A DNA stretch of 64,000 bases. Source: an uncultured bacterium (GTDB lineage: Bacteria > CSSED10-310 > CAZUFC01). Below the pieces are notes generated by a model that worked only from the letters and a program-made list of their open reading frames with translations, was not told the origin of the DNA and ran no database searches. The stretch is taken from positions 32,001-96,000 of the forward strand of contig CAZUFC010000007.1 in the NCBI GenBank assembly GCA_964619725.1, read 5' to 3'. A program made the translations under genes and the position numbers. Below, piece by piece: positions 15,117-41,338 of the stretch (the stretch's first letter is position 1; each line of letters opens with the position of its first letter).

Positions 15117-17615
15117 CTACAGCAATTCCGGGTCCCCGCCCGCCAGAATTTCCACCATGTAATCATGAAAATAATCATGCTCGTCGCTTATCTCTGAGGG
15201 GACTTTTTCTAAATACAAACTTCTGCCGCGAGCAATTTCCTCGCCTAAGCTCATGAGTATATTTTCATTGCTTCTGGCAGTCTCCAATTGCTCCTTGTTA
15301 TAGTTCTTTATATCAAGAAGAATCGTTCGAGCCAGTCTCTTCGCTTTCTCTCTCGCCTCCGACATAGGGTCCTGGCGGCCTGGAGGTGCAGCGGCTTGCG
15401 GAGCGCCCCTTCTCATTCCGGCTTTATATTCTGTCGATTCTTCCCGCTCAACTTCGTCTACAAGCTCAGACACCCAATCTTCCCCTTCCGTATCCGCTCC
15501 AAAATCTGTCTCCATTTTCTCTTCTTCGCCGGGCTTCTCATCCTGTAATTCTCTTTCCTCTTCTTCAAGTCCGAAATCGTATTCCTCCTCCTGCATCGCT
15601 CCTGAATACGCATCTCTCTTCTCTTCGGATTTCCCGGCTTTCTTCGTCTCATCGGTTGTGCCGATTACACCCTGTAAAAGATCGGATACCCATTTCTCAT
15701 CCCTCTTCGGCTTGTCTTGCCGGTCGCCCGCCCCTTCAGTGGGACCCATTATTTTCTCCATCCAGTCTTCCGATTCCTCTTCCTTCCGCTCCTGCCTTCG
15801 ATGTTTTCTCTTTTCAATCAAACGATTCAGCAAGTGTTCCGAACCTACTCCCTTTTCCTCGCTTTCTTCCTCTTCAAACTCCTCCGATATCTCTTCCCCC
15901 TCTTCAGTCTCCTTTTCCTCCGGGAATTCTTCTATTTCCGCTTCCGATTCCTCAACACCCGCTGCAATGCCTTCTTCAACAGCCGCCGGTTTCTCTTCCT
16001 CAGGCTCTTCCGGCTCTTCCGGCTCTTCCGGCTCTTCCGGCTCTTCCGGCTCTTCCGCTCCCTTCATTTCTTCCGCTCCAACTTCTTCTTCAACCGCAAT
16101 CCGTTCCTCCTGCTCCTCTTCGGTTATCTCCTTCGCTTCAATCGGCCCCTCTTCCGCTTCGTCTGCTTCTTCAACCTCTTCCTTTACTGCATCGGTTTGC
16201 TGCGTCGACGATACCGGTTCACTGACTTTGACTTCTTCCCTCTTTTCAACGACTTCCGCTTCAACCTTTTCTTCAGCTCTTTCCTTCTCCTCATCAACTT
16301 TCGGCTCCACTTCCGCTTCAACCTCAGCTTCCGTGATCTTCTTTTCCTCCTCCTTAACCTCAATATCCTCGTCCTTTTCCTCTTCCGCTTCAACCCCGGC
16401 TTTCGCCGCCTTTTCTTCCTCCGCTTTCGATTCTTTCTGCCTGAGCGCTTCAACCGCCTCTTCCGGTTCTGCCTTCTCTTCTGCTTCAACCTCTTCAACC
16501 TTATCCCCGGTTTCCGCATCCTCGCTGGTTCTGTAGGCTATCTCAATAACCTTCTCCTTCACCGCCGGCTCTCTCTTCTCCTCTTCCTCCGTAAGCTCCT
16601 CCTCGACTTTCTTTTCTTCCTTCCCGGCAACCGGTTCTTCCGGCGTTTCTTCCGCCTGAACATCTTCCGTTTCCCTGATTTCCGCCTCTTCAGAAGTCTC
16701 CTTAACAACCTCCTCCTCAAACACGGTCGCCTGCTCTTCCTTCCCTGCCGGTTCAGATTCTTTGGCTTCCAGTTGCGCTTCCTCCGCCTCCAGCTTCTCT
16801 TCTCCCGGTTCCAATTTCTCTATCCCCTTCAGAATCTCTTCAGACATCTTGCGTTCCGCTTCGCTCTTCTCTGCGTCCTTCTCTGCTTCCTTCTCTTCAA
16901 ACGTTTCAAGCGATTTGAGCCGGTCTTCAATCTTATCGAATGAATCCAGGTCTATCTCGTCAGCTTCCTTACCGGCCTGCTCTTTGCCCAATACCTCAAT
17001 TTCTTCGCTAATTCGCCCGTAATCATCCTCCCGGGAATCAACCGTTTCCAGCTTGTCCGTTATGCTGTCCTCTAGAAATCCCCTTTCTTCGAGCAATTCG
17101 TCGATCATTTCATCATGATCTTCCGTATCCCCTGTCAGAGAAAATTCATCTCCCGTCTCTTCCACAATTTCCAGCTCTGATTCCTTCAACGCGTCCGATC
17201 CTAATTCAACCTCCGTACCGGAAACCGGAAACTCCTCATCTTCCTCTATTTCCCTTTCTGCAAACTCGTCAATCTTTCGTTCGTCCTGAAAAGAAAATTT
17301 TTCTATTTCCGTTTCAATTTCCGGCTCCGCCTCATCCTCAACTTCCAACTCTTCTTCCGCCGTCATCTCAGGCTTCATATCATACTTTTCGTGATACACT
17401 TCCGTCAGCGTATCCGCCTCGAATTCAAACTTCTCGGGTATCTCCGGATAATCTTCCACTCCAATCGAAGACTCTTCCCGGTCCAGTGCGCCGCCGCTTC
17501 TGGTTGAAGGAGTCTGCGACTCTTTTTTCGGTTTAAAAAATGTCAAAAAGAGTCCGATCAGGATCAGCAAAAGTCCAAAAAAGGCTATGATGTAAACATA
17601 ATTCATTGCGCTCAT
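15117..17615 (-). CDS. Membrane-anchored Glu-rich protein with conserved RomX-like C-terminal domain
   Basis: N-terminal TM helix, about 700 aa acidic low-complexity region, C-terminal AKRLARTILLDIKNYN..EEIARGRSLYLEKV..LAGGD. Confidence 0.8.
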   Translation of the reverse strand: MSAMNYVYIIAFFGLLLILIGLFLTFFKPKKESQTPSTRSGGALDREESSIGVEDYPEIPEKFEFEADTLTEVYHEKYDMKPEMTAEEELEVEDEAEPEIETEIEKFSFQDERKIDEFAEREIEEDEEFPVSGTEVELGSDALKESELEIVEETGDEFSLTGDTEDHDEMIDELLEERGFLEDSITDKLETVDSREDDYGRISEEIEVLGKEQAGKEADEIDLDSFDKIEDRLKSLETFEEKEAEKDAEKSEAERKMSEEILKGIEKLEPGEEKLEAEEAQLEAKESEPAGKEEQATVFEEEVVKETSEEAEIRETEDVQAEETPEEPVAGKEEKKVEEELTEEEEKREPAVKEKVIEIAYRTSEDAETGDKVEEVEAEEKAEPEEAVEALRQKESKAEEEKAAKAGVEAEEEKDEDIEVKEEEKKITEAEVEAEVEPKVDEEKERAEEKVEAEVVEKREEVKVSEPVSSTQQTDAVKEEVEEADEAEEGPIEAKEITEEEQEERIAVEEEVGAEEMKGAEEPEEPEEPEEPEEPEEPEEEKPAAVEEGIAAGVEESEAEIEEFPEEKETEEGEEISEEFEEEESEEKGVGSEHLLNRLIEKRKHRRQERKEEESEDWMEKIMGPTEGAGDRQDKPKRDEKWVSDLLQGVIGTTDETKKAGKSEEKRDAYSGAMQEEEYDFGLEEEERELQDEKPGEEEKMETDFGADTEGEDWVSELVDEVEREESTEYKAGMRRGAPQAAAPPGRQDPMSEAREKAKRLARTILLDIKNYNKEQLETARSNENILMSLGEEIARGRSLYLEKVPSEISDEHDYFHDYMVEILAGGDPELL
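16003..16056. repeat. Perfect 9-bp tandem repeat (GGCTCTTCC)x6 encoding (EEP)6
   Basis: Read directly from the sequence. Confidence 0.95.
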
Positions 17616-17757
17616 GTGTTCAGCCTCAAGTTATCTTCATTTGAAAATTTTAAATATAAGAATCAAGCGCTCACCGTTCCAACAGAAAATTAACAAAGGA
17701 TTCCCCTGTTGTCAAATACGGGAAAAGCGAAAAGCGAGTCTTCATCATATCATAATT

Positions 17758-18792
17758 CTAATTCGGGGCCCTGTTTTCCCAGCAGTGATCGCAAATGGAA
17801 AGCATGCTTTTACTTCCCTTGATCATCGAATTTCTTATTTCCATCATTTTCTGTCCGTTCCAGCAATCCTCTTCGTGAATATTACCGAATTCTTTTCTCG
17901 GAATAATCACGCAACATGGAGATATATTACCATCGCCGTCAATAGTCAACATCCGGAAAGGATGCGGACAACAGGTCGTGGTCAGGTCAGGACGAACGAG
18001 CCTGGGCGGCAAAATTTCCATCGAGCCGACAGACAAGGGAATTGCGGCGATTTTCTTTCTCATTTCATTAGTATCGTAGAGACACTTTTCATGGCTTGTC
18101 ATCTCTGAGCATTCGTAAGACAAAAGATTTTGAAATAAAACGCGGTCAACTCCCAGAGTCGTACCGAGTTTTATAAAATCATTCATTTTATCATAATTAT
18201 CCGTGCTTACGACATGTGAGAGAGCTATTTTCAGTCCTGATCCTTCTTTTTCTCTTTCGGAGGCGAGAGTCTCAATCCCCTTGACGATTCTCCAGTATAA
18301 TTCTTCGGACCCTTTGCGCAGACGTTTATACCCATCAGGATCAGAAGCATCCAGGCTGACATTGAGAACATCGAGCGGAGAACGCAGCAATTTCTTTATA
18401 TTATCCTCTGTTAAGAGCGTTCCGTTCGTTGAGACGGTCGTATGAAGATCATTGTTCGACGATATTCGTATAAATTCAAACAGGCGCTCGTGCAAAAACG
18501 GCTCGCCTCCCACCAGGCCGATGGATTCAGCAGAACGGTTCTCCGCTGTGAATTTTTTAAACATCTCAACGGTCATATCCTGAAAAGGCTTTTCAGGTCC
18601 GAAATTCGAATGCGAGGCGAAAGGACATGTGTTGCAGCTCATATTGCAGCGATGAGTGATAAAAGCCATCAATTCCAGGGGTCTGTAATTCAATCTGGGA
18701 GAATCCGTCCCAAAAATTTTGCGCTTCATCCGGTTCAGAAGCTGCCGACGATTCAATCTCCCGGCCAGAGCCAATTTTGATCTTAAACCCAA
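17758..18792 (-). CDS. Radical SAM protein with SPASM/twitch domain
   Basis: CNMSCNTC, GGEPFLH, STNGTLL, VSLD, CPHPF..DGNISPCC..FGNI..CDHC. Confidence 0.9.
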   Translation of the reverse strand: MGLRSKLALAGRLNRRQLLNRMKRKIFGTDSPRLNYRPLELMAFITHRCNMSCNTCPFASHSNFGPEKPFQDMTVEMFKKFTAENRSAESIGLVGGEPFLHERLFEFIRISSNNDLHTTVSTNGTLLTEDNIKKLLRSPLDVLNVSLDASDPDGYKRLRKGSEELYWRIVKGIETLASEREKEGSGLKIALSHVVSTDNYDKMNDFIKLGTTLGVDRVLFQNLLSYECSEMTSHEKCLYDTNEMRKKIAAIPLSVGSMEILPPRLVRPDLTTTCCPHPFRMLTIDGDGNISPCCVIIPRKEFGNIHEEDCWNGQKMMEIRNSMIKGSKSMLSICDHCWENRAPN

Positions 18793-18842
18793 ATTTCTCC
18801 TCCGTATGAAAACTGCTCACAAGCAGACGGTTGAATCGCCTG

Positions 18843-19319
18843 TCATCCTGCCGCCGTTATCAGGGCCGTGAACCATCCCGCGGCCATGAAGGGGAGAAAA
18901 GGCGCCCTGATCTCCCCACAATCCCTTTTAACAAAAAAGCGATTTAAATACCAGATAAAATGAATGAGCGCTGCGGCAATGAATGCGACCGGTATAAAGA
19001 GCCATGGAAACGCGGGAGGATGACAGCAAAAGATCAGAGCAATGGAGGCTTTCACGTCTGCAGGATGAACAAGTCCTGAAAATAGGTAGAAAACAATGAC
19101 AAGAGCAGAAAAACCAAGCGGAGCCAGAAAGGAACTTATATTTTTCTCATCGGTCAGATAAAGAAAAATCGCCATCAGGAATATGAAAAACCATATCCCG
19201 TTTGAGAATTTCCTGAATCTCCAATCCTGGATGCTTCCCCACACCAGCAAAGCCGAGACGATAATCTTGACCGTGGTTATCGACGACGGCAAATCGTTTA
19301 ACGTTTCATCACCCAACAA
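18843..19319 (-). CDS. A24 prepilin peptidase, short TadV/CpaA-like
   Basis: Multi-TM protein; QDWRFRKFSN and HPADVK carry both catalytic Asp; C-terminal APFLPFMAAG. Confidence 0.75.
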   Translation of the reverse strand: MLGDETLNDLPSSITTVKIIVSALLVWGSIQDWRFRKFSNGIWFFIFLMAIFLYLTDEKNISSFLAPLGFSALVIVFYLFSGLVHPADVKASIALIFCCHPPAFPWLFIPVAFIAAALIHFIWYLNRFFVKRDCGEIRAPFLPFMAAGWFTALITAAG

Positions 19320-19402
19320 GCATTATCCCCAATTTTGCGTTGTCCTTCCACATGGAACCTTCAGCATGCCGTCTCCGTTTTTATTCCCCATTAACAGCAA
19401 CA

Positions 19403-20476
19403 TCAACAGCAATCGCAACAGAACGTATCAATAGCCCAGCATGCGCAAAGTTGCTCCACGCATCGATCAGACTCCGAATAACGTTTTCCGCAACACATCC
19501 TTGAAAAACATAAAAACAGAAAACAGCATGCTATGCAGCCGCCGCATTCCTCTATGATGCCCTCCTGGGCCGTCAGAAAATGTCCGATCCGGCTGTTGAA
19601 CACCGGGTCTGTTTCGGGCAGCTTTTTCGGAAGATGAACAAGCAGCGAGCTATCGAATATTCTTTTGCATATTTCATAATTCGGCAGCTCCGTTAACTCA
19701 TCCCATAAGGAATTCAGAATCGTCATCTCTTTTTCAAAGGCTTCTCTGATCGGCCTTATGTCCACAGCCATCACATCTTCGCTGATCTGAAGCGTAAAAC
19801 AATTTAAAACCGCGTTGAAATAACGCCTTCTGACATCCTTTTTAAAATCAAGACAGGCGTCCAGCAAATAAATCATCCGGCCCAGGCGCTTACCGAACTC
19901 TCCCAATACTTCAACCGTCCTTGAAATAAAACCTGCCCTCACGCCTGACGCTTGCAGAATGTATTTTAAGCCTTCAGCGGAAGATTCAGCATAAACTTCA
20001 TATTGATCCCGGTCATCTTTTTCATTGCTCGCCTGCTTCCTGAACAATCCGTGAAGCCTTTTCATATCCAGTCCGCAGCTTTCCTTCACTCGGGTCTTCA
20101 TCCTGTCGAATGTCCTCCCGTAAAAACGATAAAATAACTTGTCCCTTAAACCGCCCCTGTCTTCAATGTGATCAATCGCCTTAAAATATCCCAGAAGAAC
20201 GCTCATATCGGCAGCCCTGTCGAACATCGGATCAGACAGACTTACGGATATCTTTCTTAAAGGATTAACAGGACACTTTCCACGGAATTCGACAAATGAA
20301 GCCTTCGCGTTGGACGTCAGCAATGATGTGAAAAGCGCATCATGACTCGTCATCATAGCTGCCTTGCCGCCGTAACGGTTTCTTAATGCGCTGCAGACGC
20401 TGCAATAATATCCCCTGTATACTTTTTGAAAATCTTTTTCGCCGGCGGGTGTTCGAGGTTTTAAAAAACCATACAT
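19403..20476 (-). CDS. DUF5685-like protein with Cys-rich C-terminal tail
   Basis: MYGFLKP..YRGYYCSVCSALRNRYG, KAIDHIED, IYLLDACLD; last 51 aa contain 14 Cys. Confidence 0.75.
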   Translation of the reverse strand: MYGFLKPRTPAGEKDFQKVYRGYYCSVCSALRNRYGGKAAMMTSHDALFTSLLTSNAKASFVEFRGKCPVNPLRKISVSLSDPMFDRAADMSVLLGYFKAIDHIEDRGGLRDKLFYRFYGRTFDRMKTRVKESCGLDMKRLHGLFRKQASNEKDDRDQYEVYAESSAEGLKYILQASGVRAGFISRTVEVLGEFGKRLGRMIYLLDACLDFKKDVRRRYFNAVLNCFTLQISEDVMAVDIRPIREAFEKEMTILNSLWDELTELPNYEICKRIFDSSLLVHLPKKLPETDPVFNSRIGHFLTAQEGIIEECGGCIACCFLFLCFSRMCCGKRYSESDRCVEQLCACWAIDTFCCDCC

Positions 20477-20479
20477 CCT

Positions 20480-21088
20480 CTATGCCTCCCGTATTTTGAA
20501 AACTTTATAAAATAAAAACGCTGCCGATAACGCAATCAGAAAAAGAACGAACTGTACTGCAGATAAACGTTCCCTCAACGTTTCCCCAAAATAATACGAA
20601 ATCCCGGAGAAAATGAAAACATAAAACAGGGAGCCTGCCGCGGTCGTCCAGATAAATCGGAGATAATTAATCCTGACGACGCCTGCCATACCGGTGAAAT
20701 ATTTGCCTATTTTCGGCACAAAACGGCACCAGAATATAATGGAACGGGGATAACGCCGCATCCAGTTTTCAATTTTATCCGTGTATGAGCGTATTTTATC
20801 CCTTCTCGACAGATAATCCTTCAATCGATCTCGAACCAGGACTCCCGCAAGGTAAAACAACTGATCGCCCAGGCAGCAACCGAAGAAGGCGCTGATGATG
20901 ATCTTATGCAATTCAAGCCCGCCCATAGCGGCGATTATGCCGCCGGCGAGCAGCGCCGTGGGAATGCCTGACCTGTCCCAGACCGAAATGACGAATATGC
21001 CTGCATATCCCCACTGATTAATAAATTGATTGACGTCAAAATCGAAAAACATATAATCCATCCATAAACCGCCAAAATGTTCGAACAC
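20480..21088 (-). CDS. DedA family membrane protein
   Basis: WGYAGIF..GIP, LGDQLFYLAG, RFVP, AGVVRINYLRF. Confidence 0.88.
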   Translation of the reverse strand: MFEHFGGLWMDYMFFDFDVNQFINQWGYAGIFVISVWDRSGIPTALLAGGIIAAMGGLELHKIIISAFFGCCLGDQLFYLAGVLVRDRLKDYLSRRDKIRSYTDKIENWMRRYPRSIIFWCRFVPKIGKYFTGMAGVVRINYLRFIWTTAAGSLFYVFIFSGISYYFGETLRERLSAVQFVLFLIALSAAFLFYKVFKIREA

Positions 21089-21255: not shown

Positions 21256-21519
21256 CTACTCACTGCGTAAATCGCTCAGGTCCGAATTTGTAAATTTATC
21301 TCTTATCCTCCGAATCACGCCTACATCAGGTTCCGCGCTTTCCACTGCGCTCTCGTTCGCCTGCATCACTTTTTCCTGCAGCTCTCCTCTTAGTATTCGG
21401 ATATCTTTAGGGGCTTTAATTCCAATTTTAACCTGTTCTCCAGCGACTTGAAGTATTCTGACCTCAATATGAGGGGAAATACTTATCCATTCATTTTCTT
21501 TTCTTTGAAGAACAAGCAT
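21256..21519 (-). CDS. csrA: Carbon storage regulator
   Basis: MLVLQRKENE..QVKIGIKAPKDIRILRGEL; adjacent to fliW. Confidence 0.92.
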   Translation of the reverse strand: MLVLQRKENEWISISPHIEVRILQVAGEQVKIGIKAPKDIRILRGELQEKVMQANESAVESAEPDVGVIRRIRDKFTNSDLSDLRSE

Positions 21520-21947
21520 TATTCACATTCTTTATACAGAGGATAATTAATTTCGTAATCGCAATCCTGAATAATAAATTGCAGCCCCTTTTTTTCCGCT
21601 GAATTGATCAATACGGGCGCCTGGAGATTTATGGTTATTTTCTGAGGATTCTTTCGGAACGTCGTTACGAGGAAAACGCTGAGGTCTTCAGCTTTTTCGG
21701 CCTTGAGCATTTCCTGTTCTCTATCGGGGAAAGTAAACTGGTAATCGTTCAGATACGCTGCGCTGAAAATGAAAAAGGAAACATGGGGCTGTTCGATGGA
21801 TTGCAGCAGCATAAAAGGTTCAATGCAGGGATCATCGATGAGGATAAACTTTTTATCGTTCGGAAAACCGAGCATACCCTCATCGAATTGAATAATGGAA
21901 TTTTGATTAACTTCGATCTCGCCGAAACGTGAGGTTTTGATTTTCAC
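21519..21947 (-). CDS. fliW: Flagellar assembly factor FliW
   Basis: KTSRFGEI, GMLGF, LQSIE, TINLQAPVLIN. Confidence 0.92.
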   Translation of the reverse strand: MKIKTSRFGEIEVNQNSIIQFDEGMLGFPNDKKFILIDDPCIEPFMLLQSIEQPHVSFFIFSAAYLNDYQFTFPDREQEMLKAEKAEDLSVFLVTTFRKNPQKITINLQAPVLINSAEKKGLQFIIQDCDYEINYPLYKECE

Positions 21948-21950
21948 TTT

Positions 21951-22835
21951 TTATCCCAGGAAGTCCATCAGACTCAGATTCTCCACACGCGCCATAAAAG
22001 ATAAAGTAGATTTAACGGAAATTTGCTCTTTTGTCAGCTCCATGATCGCCTCGGCATAATCCGTTCCTTCCAAATCGCCTTTCAAACCTTTATAAACGAC
22101 TTCCAGGTCCAGATATCGATTCTGCATTTCATCGATATGCTGGATTCTGGCGCCAATTTCCGTTTGAGCCGAGATGATCTGATTTTCAATAACGCCCAGG
22201 CGGTCCAGTTGATCCTGCAGAGTAGCCTGATCGTTATTTCTTATGGATTCGGCAATCGTATGCATTACATCGAAGACATCATCATTTTCCAGGAAAACCT
22301 GTGAACCCGGGATGTTTTTCTTGACCTGCACGCCCGAACCTATCACCATTTCGGTATACTCATCGTTGCCGTGGTATACTACATGGTCTTCATCCCATTC
22401 AAAGGGTTCCTCCATGGTTTCGGTCCCGCCGAAAATATAAAAATTCAAATGCTTGGAATTGGCTGTCGCCATTATTCGATCAAACAGCGCATCCATTGAT
22501 TCTGCAAGTATTTCCCTTGTTTCCGCGCTGTTCTCCGAAGAAATAGCGCTCATGGCGGTTTCCCGCGCTTCCACGACGATATCGTAAAGATCGTCCAGAT
22601 TCGTTTCAGTCACGCTCATCCAACTGTAAGCGGAATCCACCGTTTTGATGTACGCCCGGGATTCCTGTATCAAGTTTTTTAAATTGGAGATTTTTACTGC
22701 GTCCACGGGATCGTCGGAAGGTTTATGAATTCTTTTGGCGGTAGCGATATTTTCTTCATAGGTCTGCAATCGATCATACGAACGGTTGAGATATTCAAGA
22801 AGGTTTCTCATCCGCATTGATGCTACTACTCGCAT
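21951..22835 (-). CDS. flgL: Hook-associated protein 3
   Basis: KRIHKPSDDPV, YIFGG..PF, C-terminal LSLMDFL. Confidence 0.92.
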   Translation of the reverse strand: MRVVASMRMRNLLEYLNRSYDRLQTYEENIATAKRIHKPSDDPVDAVKISNLKNLIQESRAYIKTVDSAYSWMSVTETNLDDLYDIVVEARETAMSAISSENSAETREILAESMDALFDRIMATANSKHLNFYIFGGTETMEEPFEWDEDHVVYHGNDEYTEMVIGSGVQVKKNIPGSQVFLENDDVFDVMHTIAESIRNNDQATLQDQLDRLGVIENQIISAQTEIGARIQHIDEMQNRYLDLEVVYKGLKGDLEGTDYAEAIMELTKEQISVKSTLSFMARVENLSLMDFLG

Positions 22836-22894
22836 TATTACACTCCTTTATATTCTGCGACGATCATCCGGAACTCCCCTGAAATAATTCATCA

Positions 22895-24283
22895 TCAAAC
22901 CATTTCAAAAACCCGGTCGCACATCTCATTAACTGTCTGTAAAAACTTCATAGCCGCCTGGTAGGAATTCTGATACACCAGCAGATTGGCGGCTTCCTCA
23001 TCCAACGAAACGCCTGAAACGCTGTCTTTTTTATTCCTCAAAAAAAGCATTACATCCGCCTGCGTATCTTCTCTTTCAGTCAATTGCTGCACTTCCAGAC
23101 CCAGTTCCGAGGATATTCCGTCAATGTATTGATAATAGGTCATGGTATTACCGTTCATGGTTTGTTCGGAAGCCAAATCAAAGATCAGAAGGGCATTGGC
23201 ATTGTCTCCCGGCGAATCTGTTCCCGCAGCGGCCAGCAACCCCGGATCATCTACAATGTCTTCATTTACTTCTATCTGGGAAGCGGCTAATTCAGGATCG
23301 GCATAAGCCTCAAAAAACAAGTTTCCCGTTTCGCCTTCTAAGCCGTATCCTGTCGAATGAAGCCCGTTCACTCTGTCTATCAGATCGATCGCCAGTTCAT
23401 TCAGTTGATCGATCCTTTCAGGAAGAACTTCATCGCGCAAACTTATCAAGCCTCCGATTTTCCCGCTTTCAATGACATCATCCATCTTTATCGACTTGCC
23501 CGAATAGTTCCAATAAATCGAATGAAAACTGTTCTCAGCGTTCTTTTGTATTTCCAATTCATAATTCGTAGAGCCGAGAACCAGCGCCTGCCCCTTTCCT
23601 GCCGAAATAGTCATGGACCCGTCATCCATCTCATGCGATTCGAAATCAATATAGCCCGCAAGCTCCTCCATCAACACATCCCTTTGATCTCTGAAATCGG
23701 AAGCTTCTGATTGCAATTCCGCTTCCTTAATCTTTGCGTTCAGCTCAGCAATATTTTCCGTTATCGAATTTATTCTTCCCACTGCAATCACGATTTCTTC
23801 ATCAGTGTCCGACTGCTGATTCATCAGATGACTGTATTTTTCCTTGATGCCGGCGGCCAGATCGATCCCCTGATGTATCACGCTCTGTCTTAACGCCATA
23901 TCCTCCGGTTCCGATGCCAGCTCCTGCCAGGCTCCGAAATAATCATATAAATTCGCGGTCAATCCCTCATTGTCCAGCTCGTTAAAGTAAGATTCAACCA
24001 GCTCAAGTCCCTCACGCTTCGTTTTCAGTTCCTGATGCAAGCTTTCGCCTTTATTTATCTGACGAACGACGAATCCGTCGTGCATTCTTCGTATGGCTTT
24101 AACATTGACGCCCAGTCCGATATATTTGTCATACGACCCCCCGCAGCTCGAAGTCAGAACAAGCTGCTGTCGCGAATATCCGGGCGTATTTACATTGGAA
24201 ATGTTGTGACCGGCCACCCATATACCGGTCTGGGAAGCATGCAAAGCCTTCATCCCCATATTCAGCGCTCCGTATATGCTCAT
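22895..24283 (-). CDS. flgK: Hook-associated protein 1
   Basis: GHNISNVNTPGYSRQ, RDQRD, SVSGVSLDEEAANL. Confidence 0.95.
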   Translation of the reverse strand: MSIYGALNMGMKALHASQTGIWVAGHNISNVNTPGYSRQQLVLTSSCGGSYDKYIGLGVNVKAIRRMHDGFVVRQINKGESLHQELKTKREGLELVESYFNELDNEGLTANLYDYFGAWQELASEPEDMALRQSVIHQGIDLAAGIKEKYSHLMNQQSDTDEEIVIAVGRINSITENIAELNAKIKEAELQSEASDFRDQRDVLMEELAGYIDFESHEMDDGSMTISAGKGQALVLGSTNYELEIQKNAENSFHSIYWNYSGKSIKMDDVIESGKIGGLISLRDEVLPERIDQLNELAIDLIDRVNGLHSTGYGLEGETGNLFFEAYADPELAASQIEVNEDIVDDPGLLAAAGTDSPGDNANALLIFDLASEQTMNGNTMTYYQYIDGISSELGLEVQQLTEREDTQADVMLFLRNKKDSVSGVSLDEEAANLLVYQNSYQAAMKFLQTVNEMCDRVFEMV

Positions 24284-24408
24284 CAGTTCCTCCCACGTCT
24301 GTTCCGATAAATTACATAGCTCATCGTTATCTTCTTATTCATATATTCCGTTCTTATCGCTTCCCATGATTCAGCCGACGCTTATCCCTTTTCCTTACGT
24401 TTAAATAA

Positions 24409-24810
24409 TCAGATATTTTTGTAACTCATTAAGCCTTCCGGACCATAGAACTGATCCCGGTCTTCTCCGCTCATCATCATATTCTGAAATTCAAAACTCA
24501 TGTTCATAACGCTCGTCATTAAAGCGGCCAGACGATGATTCGCCTTCCTAAGCTCTCTCGTCTCCTCAAGAAGGATTCTCCTCCTGGCTTCTCCTGCTTC
24601 TTCCCCTATGTAATCATGCATCCGGGTCTCCGTCAGCTTCGTCTGCTTGATTAATTCGATCGTTTCCTCTTCCAGCTTTATGCCCGCATAAGTCCCCGTT
24701 TCGATTATCCGCTTCCGCTCTTCATTCAGCAACTCTCTCAATCTTCTGCATTTCGCTCTCCGCTCCTCGAATATCTTTTCGTCCGCGCTTTTCTCTTCCT
24801 GTCTCATCAT
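24409..24810 (-). CDS. Probable FlgN-like export chaperone
   Basis: Helical 133 aa protein between flgM and flgK; call is mainly positional. Confidence 0.55.
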   Translation of the reverse strand: MMRQEEKSADEKIFEERRAKCRRLRELLNEERKRIIETGTYAGIKLEEETIELIKQTKLTETRMHDYIGEEAGEARRRILLEETRELRKANHRLAALMTSVMNMSFEFQNMMMSGEDRDQFYGPEGLMSYKNI

Positions 24811-25106
24811 GCTTCTTCCGGCGCCATGTCTTCCAGAATTTTTTCCGCCAGCATCCTGTCATCAATCTTATAACTGTCGTTATCCAGCTTCTGCTGTAAT
24901 TCCCGGACCTTCGACAACCTTATCTCAGGCTCGCTCTTAACCGCCTTGTAAAGTTTCGCATACAATCCTACTTCCGAAGAAATTTCTATCCTGTCCTGAC
25001 TCAATGAAGCCTTTTTCAACTTGGCCTTTTCTTCGGAAGAATTCTGGTTTTGATCAACGATGCGACCGAATGCTTTGTCCGGTCCTTCTGTTCCTGATAT
25101 TTTCAT
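24807..25106 (-). CDS. flgM: Anti-sigma28 factor
   Basis: DRIEISS..IRLSKVRELQQKLDNDSYKID..LAEKIL. Confidence 0.88.
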   Translation of the reverse strand: MKISGTEGPDKAFGRIVDQNQNSSEEKAKLKKASLSQDRIEISSEVGLYAKLYKAVKSEPEIRLSKVRELQQKLDNDSYKIDDRMLAEKILEDMAPEEA

Positions 25107-25142
25107 CTTCTTTCCTCCTCAACCCCAAACTACTCACCCTAT

Positions 25143-25169
25143 TCATCGGAAGTTTTTTGAAAAACTTTA
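25143..25169 (-). promoter_or_regulatory. Sigma28 promoter upstream of flgM
   Basis: Minus strand TAAA-N15-TCCGATGA versus consensus TAAA-N15-GCCGATAA. Confidence 0.75.
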
Positions 25170-25192
25170 GAAAAAAACTTCGCTTGCAAGCT

Positions 25193-25516
25193 TCAGGTTG
25201 ATTCATTTTTTGAGGTCAATTGCTTATAAAGCATTTCCGATAAATAGTCCTCGGTCGATTCTGCCGTCGTCTGCGACATATGTTTTTGGAAAAAAAATGA
25301 GACCAGGGAATTTTGAGAGTTTTCCTCATCCGACAGTTGTTCCAGTCCTTTGGTCATGCTTTTTAAAACATACATCCAGAAAACGGACGAGAATTCTTTG
25401 CATTTTTGCTTCAGGTCCGCTTCTTCGTTTTGAATGGCCCGATTAATTTTTTCCCGGCCCGGATTCTCTGCCAAACGTTTGAACGCGTCGACCGGGGCCT
25501 GATTCGTTATTTTCAT
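25193..25516 (-). CDS. flgJ: Short FlgJ-like rod-binding protein without muramidase domain
   Basis: LKQKCKEFSSVF..LKSM..LSEMLYKQL; follows flgI. Confidence 0.7.
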   Translation of the reverse strand: MKITNQAPVDAFKRLAENPGREKINRAIQNEEADLKQKCKEFSSVFWMYVLKSMTKGLEQLSDEENSQNSLVSFFFQKHMSQTTAESTEDYLSEMLYKQLTSKNEST

Positions 25517-25565
25517 TTAAGTCTCCTTTCCCTGCCGTTTTTATGACGCTTCAACATAAGCAACA

Positions 25566-26708
25566 TCAGATCACCACGAGTTCGGCTTGAAGTCCTCCTG
25601 CAGCTTTGATGGCCTGGAGAATTGAGATGAGGTCCCTGGGGGTGACGCCTAGTGCGTTGAGCGCTGTGACTATCTCTGAGATTGCGGCGCCTTCCATGAC
25701 CGAAAGATTAGATTTTTCTTCTTCGACATCTATTTCCGATTCGGTGGTGACCGTGGTTTTTCCTCTCGACATAGGCGGAGGCTGACTGACATAATCCTGA
25801 GTAATAATTTTCAGCGTTAAATCTCCATGCGCCACTGCGACCTTTTTTATTCTTACGTCCGCTCCCATTACGACTGTCCCTGTCTTTTCATCTATAACGA
25901 CTTTTGCGGAAACGGCCGGGTCTATTTCCAGATTTTCGAGTTTCGAGAGGAATTCCACTTTATGAGCATTCATCGATTCAGGCATTGAAACCCTTATCGT
26001 TCGGGAATCCATAGCTTCGACGGAATATTCGGGGAAGCCTGTCCTCAAGGCGGAAGCGGTTCTGGCGGCTGACGTGAAGTCGCCGTCTCTCAATACAATG
26101 TTGAATTCATTCATATCTTTCAATCTGAAAGGAAGGCTTTTCTCTACAATAGCTCCGCCCGGCGCTTTGGCTACGGTGGGGTGATTCTTCTGAGTCTTGC
26201 TTCCTTCCGAGCCTGTGGACCAGCCGCCTACGACCAGCGGCCCCTGAGCCACCGCATATACCTGGTCGTCCGCTCCCCTCAAAGGCGTCATCAGCAAAAC
26301 TCCGCCTAAAAGACTTTTGGCATCTCCAATAGACGAAGCCACGGCGTCTATTCGGCTACCGGTTCTCATAAATGGAGGCAGAACGGCAGTTACCATTACT
26401 GTCGCTACATTTTTCACCTTGACCGATTTCTGATCGACCGAAATGCCCATTCTCTCCAGCATGCTCGACATCGATTGCTGGATAAACTTGACGTTATTGG
26501 GCGAATCTCCCGTGCCGTTTAATCCCACCACCAGGCCGTAACCAATCAGAAGGTTATCCCTGACGCCCTGAATATCCGCAATGTCCTTTAATTTTGCCGA
26601 ATAAGCCGCTTCCGGCCCATAAAAACCGGTCAATGCCAGAACAAAGAGCAAACATCCGCAGTGTATTCGTAAATCTTTAATTATCCTTAGCGTCCTATTT
26701 TTTTCCAT
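25566..26708 (-). CDS. flgI: Flagellar P-ring protein
   Basis: GVRDNLLIGYGLVVGLNGTGD, VYAVAQG, ILQAIKAAG. Confidence 0.96.
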   Translation of the reverse strand: MEKNRTLRIIKDLRIHCGCLLFVLALTGFYGPEAAYSAKLKDIADIQGVRDNLLIGYGLVVGLNGTGDSPNNVKFIQQSMSSMLERMGISVDQKSVKVKNVATVMVTAVLPPFMRTGSRIDAVASSIGDAKSLLGGVLLMTPLRGADDQVYAVAQGPLVVGGWSTGSEGSKTQKNHPTVAKAPGGAIVEKSLPFRLKDMNEFNIVLRDGDFTSAARTASALRTGFPEYSVEAMDSRTIRVSMPESMNAHKVEFLSKLENLEIDPAVSAKVVIDEKTGTVVMGADVRIKKVAVAHGDLTLKIITQDYVSQPPPMSRGKTTVTTESEIDVEEEKSNLSVMEGAAISEIVTALNALGVTPRDLISILQAIKAAGGLQAELVVI

Positions 26709-26731
26709 GTCTTATTTCTCACTCATCCTTT

Positions 26732-27478
26732 TTAAAACGGCCAAACCCAGTCCAGCATCCACGTCAACCATCCCCGTCGCTGGTCCGCACTGATGATGCC
26801 CCTTCCTCCATACACCACCTGAAGGTCCGAAATATTGGTCGAAATAACGCAATTCGAATCGTCGATGTCTTGAGGCCTCACCAGTCCCTGGATGCTCAAT
26901 ATCTGTCTTTCATCGTTAATTACCAGCTCACGATGCCCTTTTATCACAAGATAACCGTTCGGCAGAACATCCACGACCCGGGCAGCCATGGTTGCGACAA
27001 GATTTCCGCTGCGCTTCGTAGAACCCTCGCCTTCAAACGATTTCGCTCCCTTCGTCTTTATCATTGTCGATGGGCTTATCATATCATTGGACCATTCGGG
27101 AATTTTCGTCTCCAGCCCGAAAAGATTCTCAATCCCCATGTCCATTTCCGATTCCTTCGAAGTCGCTGTCGTCGCTGATTGAGAAGCATCCACAGTCTCC
27201 ACGATCCTCACAGTTATTATGTCGTTGATGCGGCGCGCTTTGGAATCCGTGAAAAGGTCCAGGCCGATACGGGACGGCCGCCATATCGATGCCGGCTCCT
27301 TATAAGCATCATCCAGCCCCGTCTCATAAATCTCTGGTTCTTCCGTCATTTCCGCTTCCGGAGGCTTCTTCCTTTTGAACATGCAACCGTTGATCAAAAC
27401 GCAGGCCGTTAACATAACCACAAATACAAATCCGCAGCGGTATCTTTTGCTTCTCATCCTTATCTCACGGCGCTTCAT
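26732..27478 (-). CDS. flgH: Flagellar L-ring lipoprotein
   Basis: LINGC lipobox, LFTDSKA, VLPNG, GLVRPQDI, GWL..WPF. Confidence 0.95.
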   Translation of the reverse strand: MKRREIRMRSKRYRCGFVFVVMLTACVLINGCMFKRKKPPEAEMTEEPEIYETGLDDAYKEPASIWRPSRIGLDLFTDSKARRINDIITVRIVETVDASQSATTATSKESEMDMGIENLFGLETKIPEWSNDMISPSTMIKTKGAKSFEGEGSTKRSGNLVATMAARVVDVLPNGYLVIKGHRELVINDERQILSIQGLVRPQDIDDSNCVISTNISDLQVVYGGRGIISADQRRGWLTWMLDWVWPF

Positions 27479-28226
27479 ACCATAAATTTCCTTCCGTTCC
27501 GACGGTCGCCTGAAGTATCTTCCGAGAACTCGAATTCTTCACCTTTATACTCTCGCCGGCATAGCCGTTCTCACACGCTTCCACAAACATGCTTATCTCC
27601 AGGTTTTCCTTACGACAAAAAAGCTTGGCCCGTTCCCCTCTGCGTATCACCGGGGTCTTATCCAGACAGTTCAAGGAAACAGTCTCCCCTTTCGTCATGC
27701 TGATCCTGGTTTTCTTTCCGATCACAGAGGCCGGCGTTAAAGCCGGATTCTTTTCAGATTTTGAAATCTCCTTTAAACGCCACTCAATGTCCTCTTTACC
27801 TATGACGGAACCCGCCGGCAAATCACGCATCAAAACCGCCGCTTTCACCGTTACTTTAGTCTCAGCCAATATCCAGCAGTTTTTCTCCCGCTCCCCGTTC
27901 CGCCTGACTGTCAGCAGTAAACGCAACATTCCCCAGGAAATATCGCCCACCTTTCGCGAAATTTCCAACTCAGTATCTGCCCGCAACAGATAATCGCGGA
28001 TGCTCGAAGGATATCGCAATTCTCCAATGGTCACAGAATGAGGCTGCCAATCGGTCTTTTGAAGAATATAGTCCTTTACTTCGCTGCGAAGCCTCTCTTC
28101 TGCTTTCTGAAGTCCCGTCGAGGCGGCGGACATGCCTGCAGCGCCCAGGATCATTGCGCCCATACACATACAAACGATCAACCATCTTAAATTTTTCATT
28201 TTTCTTTCGTTCCCAGGAGATTTCAT
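27465..28226 (-). CDS. flgA: P-ring formation chaperone
   Basis: Signal peptide, SAF-like RDLPAGSVI, VIRRGE, IKVKNSSSRKI; gene order. Confidence 0.85.
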   Translation of the reverse strand: MKSPGNERKMKNLRWLIVCMCMGAMILGAAGMSAASTGLQKAEERLRSEVKDYILQKTDWQPHSVTIGELRYPSSIRDYLLRADTELEISRKVGDISWGMLRLLLTVRRNGEREKNCWILAETKVTVKAAVLMRDLPAGSVIGKEDIEWRLKEISKSEKNPALTPASVIGKKTRISMTKGETVSLNCLDKTPVIRRGERAKLFCRKENLEISMFVEACENGYAGESIKVKNSSSRKILQATVGTEGNLWYEAP

Positions 28227-28254
28227 TCAATCAACTGCCGCCTGCCCTTATATT

Positions 28255-29043
28255 TTACCTATGAAGATTACTCACCTGAGCAAGCATCTCATCAGCCGTT
28301 CTTACCGCCCTGCTGTTAATCTCATAAGCCCTTTGCCCGACTATCATCCTTACCATTTCTTCGACCATATCCACGTTGGATTTTTCCAGGTAACTCTGCA
28401 CCAGCTTACCCAGCGAACCGGTTCCGGGCGTCCCCACTATCGGTTCTCCCGAAGCTGAAGAGGGCCTGTATAAATTCCTTCCCATGCTGATTAATCCGGA
28501 AGGATTAACGAACTGAGCCAGTTCGATTGTTCCCAGTTCCGCCGGCGCCGACTGATCCGGTAAAGTCGCCGACACCTTTCCGTCTGATGAAACGTTTATG
28601 GCCAAAGCATTGCTGGGGATCGTTATGTTCGGTTCCAGAAAATACCCCTCCGAATTGACCATGTTGCCGTCACCGTCCTTCTTGAAATTTCCCGCACGCG
28701 TGTAGGCCATCTCTCCCGAAGGCAAACGAATCTGAAAAAAACCTGATCCTTCAATAAGAACATCCAGCGGATCACTCGTCGTCTGGTAATCTCCCTGAGA
28801 AAAATTCCTGTTGGTACATACCATCCTTACGCCATGTCCGACTTGTATCCCCGTGGGTATGCGCCCCACCTCGCCCGCGGGCGCCCCAGGTCCCGACAGC
28901 ATCTGGTAAAAAAGGTCCTGGAATTCAGCACGGCTCTTCTTGAATCCGTCAGTATTGACGTTGGCTAAATTGTGCGACGTTACCTCAATGGAAAGTTGCT
29001 GCGCCTTCATTCCTGACGCCGCTATCCAGAGCGCTCTGTTCAT
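28255..29043 (-). CDS. flgG: Distal rod protein
   Basis: NLANVNTDGFKKSRAEFQDL, YTRAG, LEKSNV, QRAYEINS. Confidence 0.96.
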   Translation of the reverse strand: MNRALWIAASGMKAQQLSIEVTSHNLANVNTDGFKKSRAEFQDLFYQMLSGPGAPAGEVGRIPTGIQVGHGVRMVCTNRNFSQGDYQTTSDPLDVLIEGSGFFQIRLPSGEMAYTRAGNFKKDGDGNMVNSEGYFLEPNITIPSNALAINVSSDGKVSATLPDQSAPAELGTIELAQFVNPSGLISMGRNLYRPSSASGEPIVGTPGTGSLGKLVQSYLEKSNVDMVEEMVRMIVGQRAYEINSRAVRTADEMLAQVSNLHR

Positions 29044-29152
29044 TTTTTTCTCCTTCTTGTTTCGCTTTCCTCTACGATCTGTTTTCCTGTGCCTCTCTTA
29101 TATCTTATTAATAATTGAAATATTACAGGGCCGCTCTCCGCATTAAACTTCA

Positions 29153-29866
29153 CTACGGTATCCTCCCCAGTTCGTTCGCACGGGTCGCCGATTGGGTCAG
29201 CAGTTGACGCACCACTCGCTGACTGTATTCAAAATGTCGCAACGCCGTTATCATCCCCGCCATGCTGTCCACTATCGATACGTTGGAACTCTCCAAATAT
29301 CCCTGAAGCACTTCAACATCCGTCTTATCGTTCGCCGGCTGCTCACGCTCACCGCTCCGATAAAGCGAATTCCCCTCCCGCATTAAATTGTGCGGCGCAT
29401 TGAATTGAACGACCTTAATCCTGTCCAGCTCAACTCCATCCTGAAAAATCGTCCCGTCAGGCTTTACCTCTATCGCTCCCGCTCCCAGAATTATGGCGCC
29501 GCCCTCGCCCATAACACGACCTGATCCCTCCAATATCAAATAACCGTAATTGTCCGTCTTGAAACTGCCGTTGCGCGTATAACGCCGCCCGGCGCCGCTC
29601 TGGATAACAAAAAATCCGTCACCCTTTATCGACAGGTCCAATTCCCGCTCCGTCATCCTGTGTTCGCCTTCCTCCAAATTAAGGGCCTGGCGGTTATGAA
29701 TATTGTATATGCCGACTTTATCCGTCGTCTCCCACAGCACTTCATTGAACGATACGTCGCCTTTGAAACCGGCCGTCGTCGAATTCGCCAGCTTATCCGT
29801 CTGATTCTCCAAGTTACGCAACTGGCTCTTCATTGCAGAACCGCTGAGATAAATCGAATTGTTCAT
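29153..29866 (-). CDS. flgF: Proximal rod protein
   Basis: LANSTTAGFK, YTRNG, QGYLESSNV; precedes flgG. Confidence 0.88.
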   Translation of the reverse strand: MNNSIYLSGSAMKSQLRNLENQTDKLANSTTAGFKGDVSFNEVLWETTDKVGIYNIHNRQALNLEEGEHRMTERELDLSIKGDGFFVIQSGAGRRYTRNGSFKTDNYGYLILEGSGRVMGEGGAIILGAGAIEVKPDGTIFQDGVELDRIKVVQFNAPHNLMREGNSLYRSGEREQPANDKTDVEVLQGYLESSNVSIVDSMAGMITALRHFEYSQRVVRQLLTQSATRANELGRIP

Positions 29867-29919
29867 CGCTTATCTCCCGTCAGGAAACCGACTTCATACG
29901 TTCCCCCGAACTGAAAAGA

Positions 29920-29936
29920 AGCAACATTTATGCCTA
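29920..29936 (-). promoter_or_regulatory. Sigma54 promoter upstream of flgF
   Basis: TAGGCATAAATGTTGCT (GG-N10-GC). Confidence 0.8.
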
Positions 29937-29944
29937 ATGTACCT

Positions 29945-29971
29945 TTATCGGCCATTTCTTCCGAATCTTTA
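29945..29971 (-). promoter_or_regulatory. Sigma28 promoter upstream of flgF
   Basis: Perfect TAAA-N15-GCCGATAA. Confidence 0.82.
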
Positions 29972-30041
29972 GCAGTTTTTTTAATTAAATTCATTATCTC
30001 CCTTTTTACAATCAGTTACAACAAGTTTGCCGGCACTCTTC

Positions 30042-30257: not shown

Positions 30258-30301
30258 TTTTTCATTGGTTTCGGGGTCTCTTAATGGTCCGCCGTGGACT
30301 T

Positions 30302-37821: not shown

Positions 37822-37839
37822 TCTTTATGACTTTATCCC

Positions 37840-38955: not shown

Positions 38956-39000
38956 GAGATTATCTCTTCTCTGAAAAATCCAACTGAAGGCGTCATCTTT

Positions 39001-39546: not shown

Positions 39547-39589
39547 CAGAAAAACGGCAGAAGGAAGCAGAGCGCCCAAAACAGGAAAA

Positions 39590-41265: not shown

Positions 41266-41338
41266 TAATTCAACGCAGCCTTATAAAATCCACAAATCAT
41301 AACCCATTCCCTCTTCCATCCTTCCACTCTTCCCCGCT

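Follow-up and report, generated by a model that had tools for sequence, protein, structure and literature searches.

Layout of the locus

Four genes of like orientation lie close together on the minus strand of the window, by which we mean the whole 64,000-nt stretch of DNA that was analysed. The gaps between them, re-derived from the ORF coordinates, are 3, 83 and 50 nt, just as the earlier note on this DNA had reported. The features of the region are the following.

20480..21088, minus strand: DedA/VTT-domain membrane protein, 202 aa (PF09335)
19403..20476, minus strand: DUF5685 gene, whole ORF, 357 aa (ORF call)
19559..20476, minus strand: DUF5685 core, residues 1-306, predicted isoprenoid-synthase-fold domain (PF18937, AF2 model)
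19403..19558, minus strand: cysteine-string tail, residues 307-357 plus stop codon (residue counts)
18843..19319, minus strand: small divergent A24-like membrane aspartyl peptidase, 158 aa (PF01478, below cut-off)
17758..18792, minus strand: radical SAM (rSAM) enzyme with SPASM/twitch-type C-terminal domain, 344 aa (PF04055, PF13186)
17692..17710, minus strand: weak terminator-like hairpin, 48 nt past the rSAM stop codon (consensus scan)

The DedA protein matches the VTT/DedA family PF09335 with E 2.5e-11; its 44.5 bits exceed the cut-off of 33.9. With the NCBIfam models of the DedA/UptA undecaprenyl-phosphate flippases it scores 43 bits, far under their cut-offs of 236-300. It is encoded by one of four VTT-domain genes in the genome. 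No DedA gene was seen adjoining any other DUF5685 locus examined, and DedA is linked to DUF5685 only by position.

Upstream on the same strand are flgK-flgL-fliW-csrA, separated from the four genes by 167 nt. The hairpin beyond the rSAM gene has eight pairs, three of which are G-C (consensus scan), and could be where the transcription unit ends. This is weak evidence, because the region contains 13 terminator-like sites in all, compared with 8.0 +/- 2.9 in shuffled sequences. The four genes are probably co-transcribed in the window, yet they do not make up a conserved system.

The position of the genes bears on the possibility that they are coincidental neighbours, i.e. that the Cys-tailed DUF5685 protein is self-contained and the DedA, A24-like and rSAM genes only share a transcript located at the end of a flagellar operon. 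Their trailing of the flagellar genes is consistent with this, as is the presence of four DedA paralogues and three A24 paralogues in the genome. By contrast, the 3-nt spacing between the DedA and DUF5685 genes suggests coupling. We return to this below in the light of other loci.

Fold and motifs of the DUF5685 domain

The second protein had been called DUF5685-like, a description that can now be strengthened. It is a true member of PF18937 (E 1.3e-36), scoring 126.9 bits where the cut-off is 26.7, and the match spans profile positions 1-243 of 272. There are at least 2642 representative homologues in bacteria and archaea. We found no published function for DUF5685/PF18937; the one paper found to mention DUF5685 is an in-silico listing, and none was found that mentions PF18937. 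Residues C28, C68, D102, D106, D206 and D210 are invariant in 75 homologues, while C25, D214 and N221 are conserved in at least 90% of them; all nine are present in the window protein. The motifs there are YCxxC, D102xxxD106 and D206xxxD210xxxD214, the last being followed by N221.

The AF2 model of the protein has a pLDDT of 82.6. Its best match in VIA-align is hexaprenyl diphosphate synthase 2azj (Z 16.5, rmsd 3.6 over 244 aligned residues), and ranks 1-47 of the best 50 are all occupied by proteins of the isoprenoid-synthase fold. These comprise prenyl diphosphate synthases, prenyltransferases (MoeN5, Ord1), squalene synthases and terpene synthases, and the top Foldseek matches belong to the same families. 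Judged from the model, the DUF5685 domain is of the class I isoprenoid-synthase fold. The motifs DHIED and DACLDFKKD each close a long helix of the model (residues 83-107 and 185-209 respectively); in prenyl synthases the donor-binding Asp motifs are likewise located at the ends of long helices.

The resemblance does not extend to the sequence. PF00348 gave no Pfam match to the protein at E <= 0.01, and a profile search of PDB sequences returned nothing better than E 0.17, the best prenyl synthase being found at E 0.69. Moreover, the Asp motifs are DxxxD, as opposed to the DDxxD of trans-prenyl synthases, and this counts against a role in prenyl chemistry. Ahead of D206 the consensus reads G-R-W-I-Y-L-x; the window protein has M-I-Y-L-L there, and no Gln occurs in either. 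On a fused-precursor reading like that of the earlier note, DUF5685 would be a mere carrier. The isoprenoid-synthase fold together with the invariant DxxxD and DxxxDxxxD motifs indicates instead an enzyme-like protein, so it is unlikely to be a passive carrier.

Cysteine strings that accompany DUF5685

The C-terminal tail of the window protein has 14 Cys in 51 aa, as the earlier note had counted, compared with 7 in the first 306 residues. Near its start, at residues 311-325, is a Cys-rich stretch of hydrophobic character (the best 15-mer has a mean Kyte-Doolittle value of 2.21), and the tail contains a single Trp. Residues 312-357 have pLDDT below 50 in the AF2 model. The closest homologue, P0088, is 32% identical overall; the two tails align, having in common G306-I-I-E309 and eight Cys. 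Only P0088 has the same order of G306, IIEE and hydrophobic Cys stretch, which restricts the proposed cleavage motif G|IIE to these two proteins. We take G-I-I-E with the hydrophobic Cys stretch to bear a loose resemblance to a class III signal cleavage site, where a Gly at -1 precedes a hydrophobic helix.

In other lineages an adjacent gene provides the Cys string in trans. The gene immediately downstream carries one in 13 of 25 bacterial loci, in Bacillota; these 13 genes have 5-11 Cys within the last 30 aa, and ten of them encode J-domain proteins. In the Thermoplasmata a membrane Cys-string peptide of about 100 aa (86-130 aa) adjoins DUF5685 in 11 of 12 loci, and an rSAM/SPASM gene occurs with DUF5685 and a Cys-string peptide in all 12. 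Fused forms, having at least six Cys in the last 60 aa, account for 14 of the best 150 DUF5685 representatives, including the window protein. A quick tree groups 15 of 16 fused forms within a set of 18 rows that has 99% support, so that by sequence they appear to be a single, mostly monophyletic subfamily. These observations support the view that the Cys tail and the DUF5685 domain form a functional pair that recurs. Alignment of the window tail with the clostridial partner tails scores 9.8 bits, a value reached by 1302 of 2000 shuffles, so the resemblance is one of composition only.

Three Bacillota genomes have the fused form in one conserved cassette, together with a PF00348 protein and an A24-like gene. 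The PF00348 protein has an intact FARM motif and a degenerate SARM (NDxNN). The window genome has two PF00348 genes, both on other contigs. The Bacillota fused tails follow a His run and do not have the motif of G plus hydrophobic stretch.

The principal alternative to lipidation is that the tail binds metal or an Fe-S cluster, with DUF5685 being metal-dependent or metal-handling and the neighbouring genes unrelated. The tail would then be comparable to the Cys/His-rich tails found in metallochaperones. Several fused tails are rich in Cys, Asp, Gly and His rather than hydrophobic; those of the sister genome G004 and of two Verrucomicrobiota take the form of CxC repeats of this composition, as might be expected of metal ligands. 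The His run preceding the Bacillota tails points the same way, and in the core C25, C28 and C68 could hold a metal or cluster. Many Cys-rich archaeal proteins are predicted to bind cofactors, according to the account in PMC13692751. One copy of the cassette is located between hypF and hypE/D/C, but the other two copies lack this context. Against metal binding, the Cys strings of the window, P0088, the clostridia and the archaea lie in stretches that are hydrophobic rather than acidic, the cassette has a member of the prenyl-synthase family as its conserved partner, and the fold and Asp motifs point toward diphosphate chemistry. We regard a metal-binding tail as unlikely.

Several known systems offer partial parallels. 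The cysteine-string protein DnaJC5 is a J-domain protein anchored in the membrane by a palmitoylated Cys string, which the clostridial DUF5685 partners resemble in combining a J-domain protein with a Cys string. We know of no prokaryotic Cys string that has been shown to carry lipid. In the borosins (OphMA) the core peptide is fused to the C-terminus of the modifying enzyme, with split versions in other organisms; there the chemistry is N-methylation, and a prolyl oligopeptidase releases the product. In the window protein the presumed substrate is similarly a tail on the enzyme-like domain, although chemistry and fold differ. Eukaryotic prenyltransferases have a different fold, being alpha-alpha barrel heterodimers. 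In eukaryotic CaaX proteins the lipidation of a Cys close to the C-terminus is followed by trimming by a membrane protease (PMC13290415). The proteases there are Rce1 and Ste24, not A24 enzymes (PMC13290415).

In ComQ/ComX, PalQ/PalX and the P domain of ChrPC, a fold of the isoprenoid-synthase superfamily serves to modify a ribosomal peptide or protein whose gene adjoins that of the enzyme (PMC13290415, PMC10853753); DUF5685 has the fold and the adjacently encoded partner in common with them. Ord1 (9v4g), a related prenyltransferase, aligns with the DUF5685 model at Z 13.6, and the PF00348 protein of the Bacillota cassette is like ComQ, which has a FARM and a pseudo-SARM (PMC10853753). However, the trans-IDS-like peptide prenyltransferases characterised in the account of PMC13290415, ComQ and PalQ among them, all modify Trp and not Cys, whereas the partner of DUF5685 is a Cys string. 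DUF5685 further differs from ComQ and PalQ in having two DxxxD motifs and three conserved Cys, in lacking a Gln ahead of the second Asp motif, in having no sequence-level similarity to prenyl synthases and, in the window, in the fusion of the acceptor to the enzyme.

Neighbouring genes and a proposed chemistry

The earlier note had stated that the A24-like peptidase retains both catalytic Asp, and this holds: D32 and D88, together with K90, are invariant across six aligned sequences (the window protein, its A24-like counterpart at a Bacillota locus and four canonical A24 peptidases, of which two are CpaA-like and two PilD-like). The protein also has the C-terminal PF...PF..G motif in common with PilD, TadV/CpaA and FlaK, and its size fits the short TadV/CpaA type. 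It departs from canonical A24 peptidases in its match to Peptidase_A24 (PF01478; E 3.6e-4), which at 21.4 bits is below the cut-off of 26.5; counterparts at other fused-tail loci score 28.1, 27.1 and 20.3 bits. In the window and counterparts the second motif is HPAD or GAAD instead of GxGD. No prepilin-like gene is nearby, and a Pfam scan of the 35 larger ORFs of the window revealed neither a pilin nor a tad gene, in keeping with the earlier note. In the ESM Atlas PF01478 is set on 22 of the 30 nearest clusters, while a word-based search for homologues recovered only the protein itself. The AF2 model is poor (pLDDT 60.3, pTM 0.39), and its best structural match is unrelated (Z 6.9). The gene is the third A24 paralogue of the genome; one PilD-like and one CpaA-like gene are on other contigs, the latter being followed, as judged by eye, by a Flp/TadE-like ORF. 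A24-like genes with the two Asp are common to the window and to the Bacillota cassette of another phylum. The recurrence of such a gene beside a Cys-tailed DUF5685 in a second lineage is thus supported, and is a newly seen partnership.

The rSAM protein matches Radical_SAM PF04055 (E 8.8e-21, 75.2 bits) and SPASM PF13186 (E 4.2e-8, 33.8 bits against 21.5), both above cut-off. Its CxxxCxxC motif (C49, C53, C56) is unchanged in two aligned orthologues of 41% identity. The CxxC at C334/C337 is followed by no more than seven residues, so that by comparison with what we take to be the SPASM consensus the pattern of seven Cys seems incomplete. Among the best 25 of 78 NCBIfam matches none reaches its cut-off, the top being TIGR04317 (105.7 against 380 bits); StsB scores 61.4 bits against a cut-off of 625. 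The enzyme was not seen to group with sugar-modifying enzymes, a placement that the earlier note had held to be incompatible with its proposal, so the proposal is not contradicted on this point. No PqqD/RRE family matched the protein at E <= 0.01, again as the earlier note had found. The closest relatives (41% identity) are in genomes without DUF5685. No DUF5685, A24 or DedA gene was present at any of 29 loci with relatives of the enzyme, and PF18937 was absent from 14 of 15 such genomes, the exception having it on another contig. No Cys-rich ORFs adjoin the six closest relatives. The window enzyme and that of the archaeal modules gave no match at E <= 10.

In Methanococcus voltae the SPASM rSAM enzyme CrpC introduces ranthionine crosslinks into the Cys-rich protein CrpA, showing that SPASM enzymes can act on whole proteins beyond short peptides (PMC13692751). 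The window is similar in that an rSAM/SPASM gene adjoins one for a protein with a Cys-rich C-terminal region. However, the CrpC family TIGR04463 is not among the best 25 of the 78 NCBIfam matches to the window enzyme, CrpC has an RRE (PMC13692751) where none was found here, and the Crp cluster as described in PMC13692751 includes no DUF5685 or A24 gene.

The earlier note had proposed that the four genes form one peptide-maturation system, in which the tail would be a fused precursor released by A24 cleavage after G306, the rSAM enzyme the source of thioethers, and DedA the export or immunity protein; DUF5685 would then serve only as leader or carrier. Tight packing and co-orientation favour this, as do the G-I-I-E and hydrophobic Cys stretch shared with P0088, the A24-like genes that accompany fused forms in another lineage, the CrpC/CrpA precedent, and the rSAM/SPASM genes beside Cys-string peptides at archaeal DUF5685 loci. 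Yet when seven fused-tail loci were compared the full set was found in the window alone, and the gene-neighbourhood check did not find it recurring elsewhere. The A24-like gene is present in four of the seven (two lineages), the window is the only one with an adjacent rSAM gene and likewise the only one with DedA, and the remaining three have DUF5685 with none of these. The joint conservation of precursor and tailoring genes that characterises a RiPP biosynthetic cluster was not found among the loci compared. The loci of the rSAM relatives, their lack of Cys-rich ORFs, the missing RRE, the absence of the G-plus-hydrophobic motif from the A24-linked Bacillota tails, and invariant enzyme-like residues that a carrier does not need all weigh against it further. 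A RiPP-like system of four genes is very unlikely. What survives of the peptide-maturation idea is the pairing of the Cys tail, the recurrence of A24 and the presence of rSAM at archaeal loci; the conserved four-gene set and the carrier role do not.

The same comparison bears on coincidence. The three fused forms that stand alone are in its favour, but the A24-like gene and fused form recur as a conserved cassette in another phylum, and an rSAM/SPASM gene recurs with the DUF5685 module in archaea. We consider it improbable that the neighbours are wholly unrelated.

The reading that we prefer, with a probability of about 45%, is a fused DUF5685–cysteine-string module having prenyl-dependent chemistry on the Cys tail and lineage-specific accessory genes. 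The core of the finding would then be a single gene, the fused form of a widespread and unstudied two-part module. The DUF5685 domain would bind a prenyl diphosphate via Mg2+ and the Asp motifs, and the bound prenyl group would alkylate thiols of the protein's own hydrophobic Cys tail, generating a lipid-modified tail embedded in the membrane. We put this chemistry forward tentatively, the odds being somewhat against it. The A24-like peptidase could be a lineage-specific accessory that cleaves the tail at the face of the membrane, perhaps after G306, although this is doubtful. More doubtful still, the rSAM/SPASM enzyme might add thioether crosslinks; the link to it is drawn from the 50-nt same-strand gap and from the co-occurrence of DUF5685, Cys string and rSAM in archaea. 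Taken to its full extent, this would make DUF5685 the first protein-cysteine S-prenyltransferase of prokaryotes, an enzyme lipidating Cys strings in both bacteria and archaea and acting in cis in the window, where intramembrane cleavage after G306 by a dedicated A24-type protease and SPASM crosslinking would then give a free, lipidated, thioether-bridged membrane peptide. That complete sequence of events is distinctly unlikely.

To our knowledge the lipidation of protein cysteines with isoprenoids is so far known from eukaryotes. The association of a prenyl-enzyme fold with Cys strings leads to the testable idea that prokaryotes do this also. The fused form in the window is the simplest object for such a test, because the enzyme and its presumed substrate share one polypeptide, and the A24-like gene, as a newly seen partner, hints at processing. 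Were the tail to bind metal, DUF5685 would instead be a new metal-dependent enzyme family of the isoprenoid-synthase fold.

The four genes and their surroundings

The four genes lie on the minus strand in the following order.

21088-20480, minus strand, VTT/DedA (Pfam)
20476-19403, minus strand, DUF5685 (Pfam, 126.9 bits against a cut-off of 26.7)
19319-18843, minus strand, Peptidase_A24 (Pfam, 21.4 bits, under the 26.5 cut-off)
18792-17758, minus strand, Radical_SAM plus SPASM (Pfam)

The intergenic gaps are 3, 83 and 50 nt. The earlier note had reported four co-oriented genes with these gaps, a 51-aa tail with 14 Cys on the DUF5685 protein, and both catalytic Asp in the A24-like protein. The reading frames and Pfam agree with the first of these, and the residue count with the second, there being 14 Cys in the last 51 residues of the protein compared with 7 in the first 306. 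In alignment with four canonical A24 proteins the A24-like protein keeps D32, D88 and K90; the catalytic residues are thus present and the Pfam cut-off is missed. Taken together these results confirm the observation.

The row is preceded by flgK-flgL-fliW-csrA on the same strand, within a large flagellar region. Since only 167 nt separate csrA from the four genes, they may be expressed by read-through from a late flagellar operon. A weak terminator-like hairpin lies 3′ of the rSAM gene. The wider surroundings contain the following.

21256-31150, minus strand, and 54697-63819, plus strand, flagellar region (flgF/G-like, flgA, flgH, flgI, flgK, flgL, fliW, csrA, fliF, FliK-like)
15117-17615, minus strand, directly downstream of the rSAM gene, 832-aa hyper-acidic protein with an N-terminal hydrophobic helix, Glu-rich tracts and a PEEPEE repeat
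36613-50587, minus strand, six glycosyltransferase genes in a row (GT4 and GT2), together with a large methyltransferase-domain protein
42957-44765, in the same stretch, B12-binding radical SAM enzyme

The hyper-acidic protein matched no Pfam family at E ≤ 0.01. The genome assembly is 9.17 Mb in 344 contigs and 91% complete; the sample of its phylum comprised 14 genomes, and the genome samples are partial.

Conservation of the gene set

The four genes had been proposed to form a RiPP-like system. Seven loci carry DUF5685 with a fused Cys-rich tail, i.e. the window, L005 in the sister-phylum genome G004, L081, L129 and L130 in Bacillota, and L121 and L122 in Verrucomicrobiota. An A24-like gene adjoins the fused form in four of the seven (the window and the three Bacillota loci), and an rSAM/SPASM gene and DedA each in the window only. 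The Verrucomicrobiota and G004 fused forms lack all three alike, and neither a VTT nor a SPASM domain was present among 126 neighbour proteins of 25 bacterial loci. The set is not kept at the other six loci; for the most part the four genes are not a system, and the proposed RiPP cluster is not conserved. In G004 a broken rSAM-like frame that Pfam does not recognise lies 3.5 kb from DUF5685.

We note that the interval 3416-5731 of L005, near the Cys/His/Asp-tailed DUF5685 gene, contains a LanC-like gene, an M23 peptidase and an FHA protein, together with a frame-broken ORF bearing CxxxCxxC that received no recognition from Pfam.

The rSAM enzyme of the window is a generic SPASM/twitch enzyme as judged from its sequence, reaching no curated family cut-off. 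Its nearest relatives (41% identity) are from candidate division CSSED10-310, and are neighboured by ATP-grasp, B12-rSAM and another SPASM gene. DUF5685, A24 or DedA was found at none of 29 loci holding rSAM relatives. PF18937 is absent from 14 of 15 genomes with such relatives, and in the exception it is on a different contig. Beside the six closest relatives the only Cys-rich ORFs look off-frame. For a SPASM enzyme that acts on a Cys-rich protein there is a published precedent, CrpC/CrpA (PMC13692751).

An A24-like gene accompanies fused DUF5685 in a second lineage, namely the Bacillota. There it belongs to a cassette with a Cys-tailed DUF5685, a membrane protein of ~150 aa and a PF00348 protein, conserved in three genomes in three different flanking contexts. 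The PF00348 genes are located as follows.

L081, 7565-8512, cassette PF00348 protein
L129, 6410-7384, cassette PF00348 protein
L130, 5034-6011, cassette PF00348 protein

All three orthologues have an intact FARM (DDxLDxD) and a SARM degenerated to NDxNN. Instead of elongating chains, the protein may act as a prenyltransferase or be a non-catalytic subunit. The window's genome (91% complete) yielded no copy of the ~150-aa membrane protein.

The fold model of the window's A24-like protein is poor (pLDDT 60.3), and its matches in a wide structural search were all unrelated helical proteins, the highest at Z 6.9; a word-based homologue search found nothing beyond the protein itself. That the clostridial module's small polytopic membrane protein might be a hidden A24 peptidase was considered and rejected (hhalign probability 0.08%). 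On another contig of the window's genome (C22; L114, 646-1701) an ORF whose N-terminus looks Flp/TadE-like by eye comes immediately after the gene for a CpaA-like A24 peptidase. Elsewhere in the genome there is therefore a Tad-type system that has a peptidase of its own.

The fold of DUF5685 and its pairing with Cys strings

DUF5685 is a large family, with at least 2642 representatives in a full HMMER scan (E ≤ 0.001). Six residues are invariant across 75 aligned homologues (C28, C68, D102, D106, D206 and D210), and C25, D214 and N221 are conserved in at least 90% of them. The AlphaFold model (pLDDT 82.6, falling below 50 for tail residues 312-357) predicts an isoprenoid-synthase fold for the domain. 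It superimposes on prenyl diphosphate synthases with Z 16.5 and rmsd 3.6 over 244 aligned residues, and ranks 1-47 of the best 50 structural matches are isoprenoid-synthase-fold proteins, including the prenyltransferases MoeN5 and Ord1, squalene synthases and terpene synthases. Foldseek returned the same families with weak E-values. Pfam gave no PF00348 match to the protein, and when the 75 proteins were run as a profile against PDB sequences no match was under E 0.17.

The pairing of DUF5685 with a Cys string, i.e. a Cys-rich C-terminal stretch either fused to it or on a neighbouring gene, is recurrent. PF18937 occurs in 23 of 201 genomes of the phylum of a Eubacteriales genome (Bacillota), and 25 loci were sampled, 20 from these genomes and five from metagenomes. 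In 13 of the 25 the directly downstream gene on the same strand encodes 5-11 Cys in its final 30 residues; ten of these 13 are J-domain proteins. A membrane protein of 4-6 helices comes next in about ten loci.

In Thermoplasmata PF18937 is present in 16 of 151 genomes. Twelve loci were examined, and in 11 of them a membrane peptide of 86-130 aa carries the Cys string; in one of these, L111, the string is 1.8 kb away. One orthologous radical SAM gene lies within 5 kb in all 12; Pfam, applied to five of these, found Radical_SAM in each and SPASM also in two. No relationship is detectable between this archaeal enzyme and that of the window. Besides the string peptide, a second small Cys-rich ORF (82-87 aa, 9-11 Cys) occurs at the 3′ end of DUF5685, for example at these positions and in others.

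L103, 4560-4811, second small Cys-rich ORF
L107, 4666-4920, second small Cys-rich ORF
L113, 4668-4916, second small Cys-rich ORF

Among the best 150 DUF5685 representatives, 14 have at least six Cys in the last 60 residues, the window protein included. A quick maximum-likelihood tree of 55 cores, midpoint-rooted for drawing only, places 15 of 16 fused proteins within one set of 18 rows (99% SH-aLRT). In it the window protein pairs with P0088 (96% support), its closest homologue (32% identity), whose tail is homologous to that of the window protein. In other lineages the string is supplied in trans and here it is fused, so the window holds a two-part module in its fused form.

The tail of the window protein opens with a hydrophobic Cys-rich stretch, and by eye resembles the partner tails of the clostridial loci (CxxxLxAxWAxDTxCCxC). 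Homology was considered and rejected, only composition being in common. Against an HMM of 12 partner tails the window tail reached 9.8 bits, a value that 1302 of 2000 composition-matched shuffles attained as well; for P0088, 960 of 2000 shuffles scored as high.

In three Bacillota loci (L083, L084 and L085, at 5449-5995) a DUF3786 gene is directly upstream of a DUF5685 that falls with the fused clade. The Cys string of L084 and L085 belongs to a 123-aa protein in which Pfam recognised no J-domain; no Cys-string protein was called in L083. In the Verrucomicrobiota genome G619, DUF5685 is fused to Sel1/TPR repeats and has no Cys string (L123, 2-1183, cut by the contig start).

Possible chemistry of the module

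We infer that the DUF5685 domain would bind a prenyl diphosphate through its two Asp motifs and alkylate the thiols of the Cys string. Such prenylation is supported by the cassette PF00348 protein with its intact FARM and degenerate SARM, a pattern that ComQ, a peptide prenyltransferase, also shows (PMC10853753), and by the embedding of many Cys strings in hydrophobic stretches. Against it, the characterised trans-IDS-like peptide prenyltransferases described in PMC13290415 all target Trp, and the DUF5685 motifs read DxxxD. Several fused tails are rich in Cys, Asp, Gly and His and look like metal binders, the window and clostridial tails share composition only, and the two PF00348 genes of the window's genome are located elsewhere. 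Cleavage of the tail by the A24-like protein could occur after G306; of the G-I-I-E motif there, P0088 is the only other bearer, and the Bacillota tails have no such site.

In its proposed working the module is most like the ComQ/PalQ class, combining an isoprenoid-synthase-fold enzyme with a neighbouring peptide, but it has neither a Trp acceptor nor a Gln ahead of the second motif, the features that define that class. A literature search found no published function for DUF5685, only a mention in an in-silico survey, and a search with PF18937 found nothing. The central gene of the row thus belongs to a widespread and genuinely unexplained module, for which the fused form is a convenient test handle.
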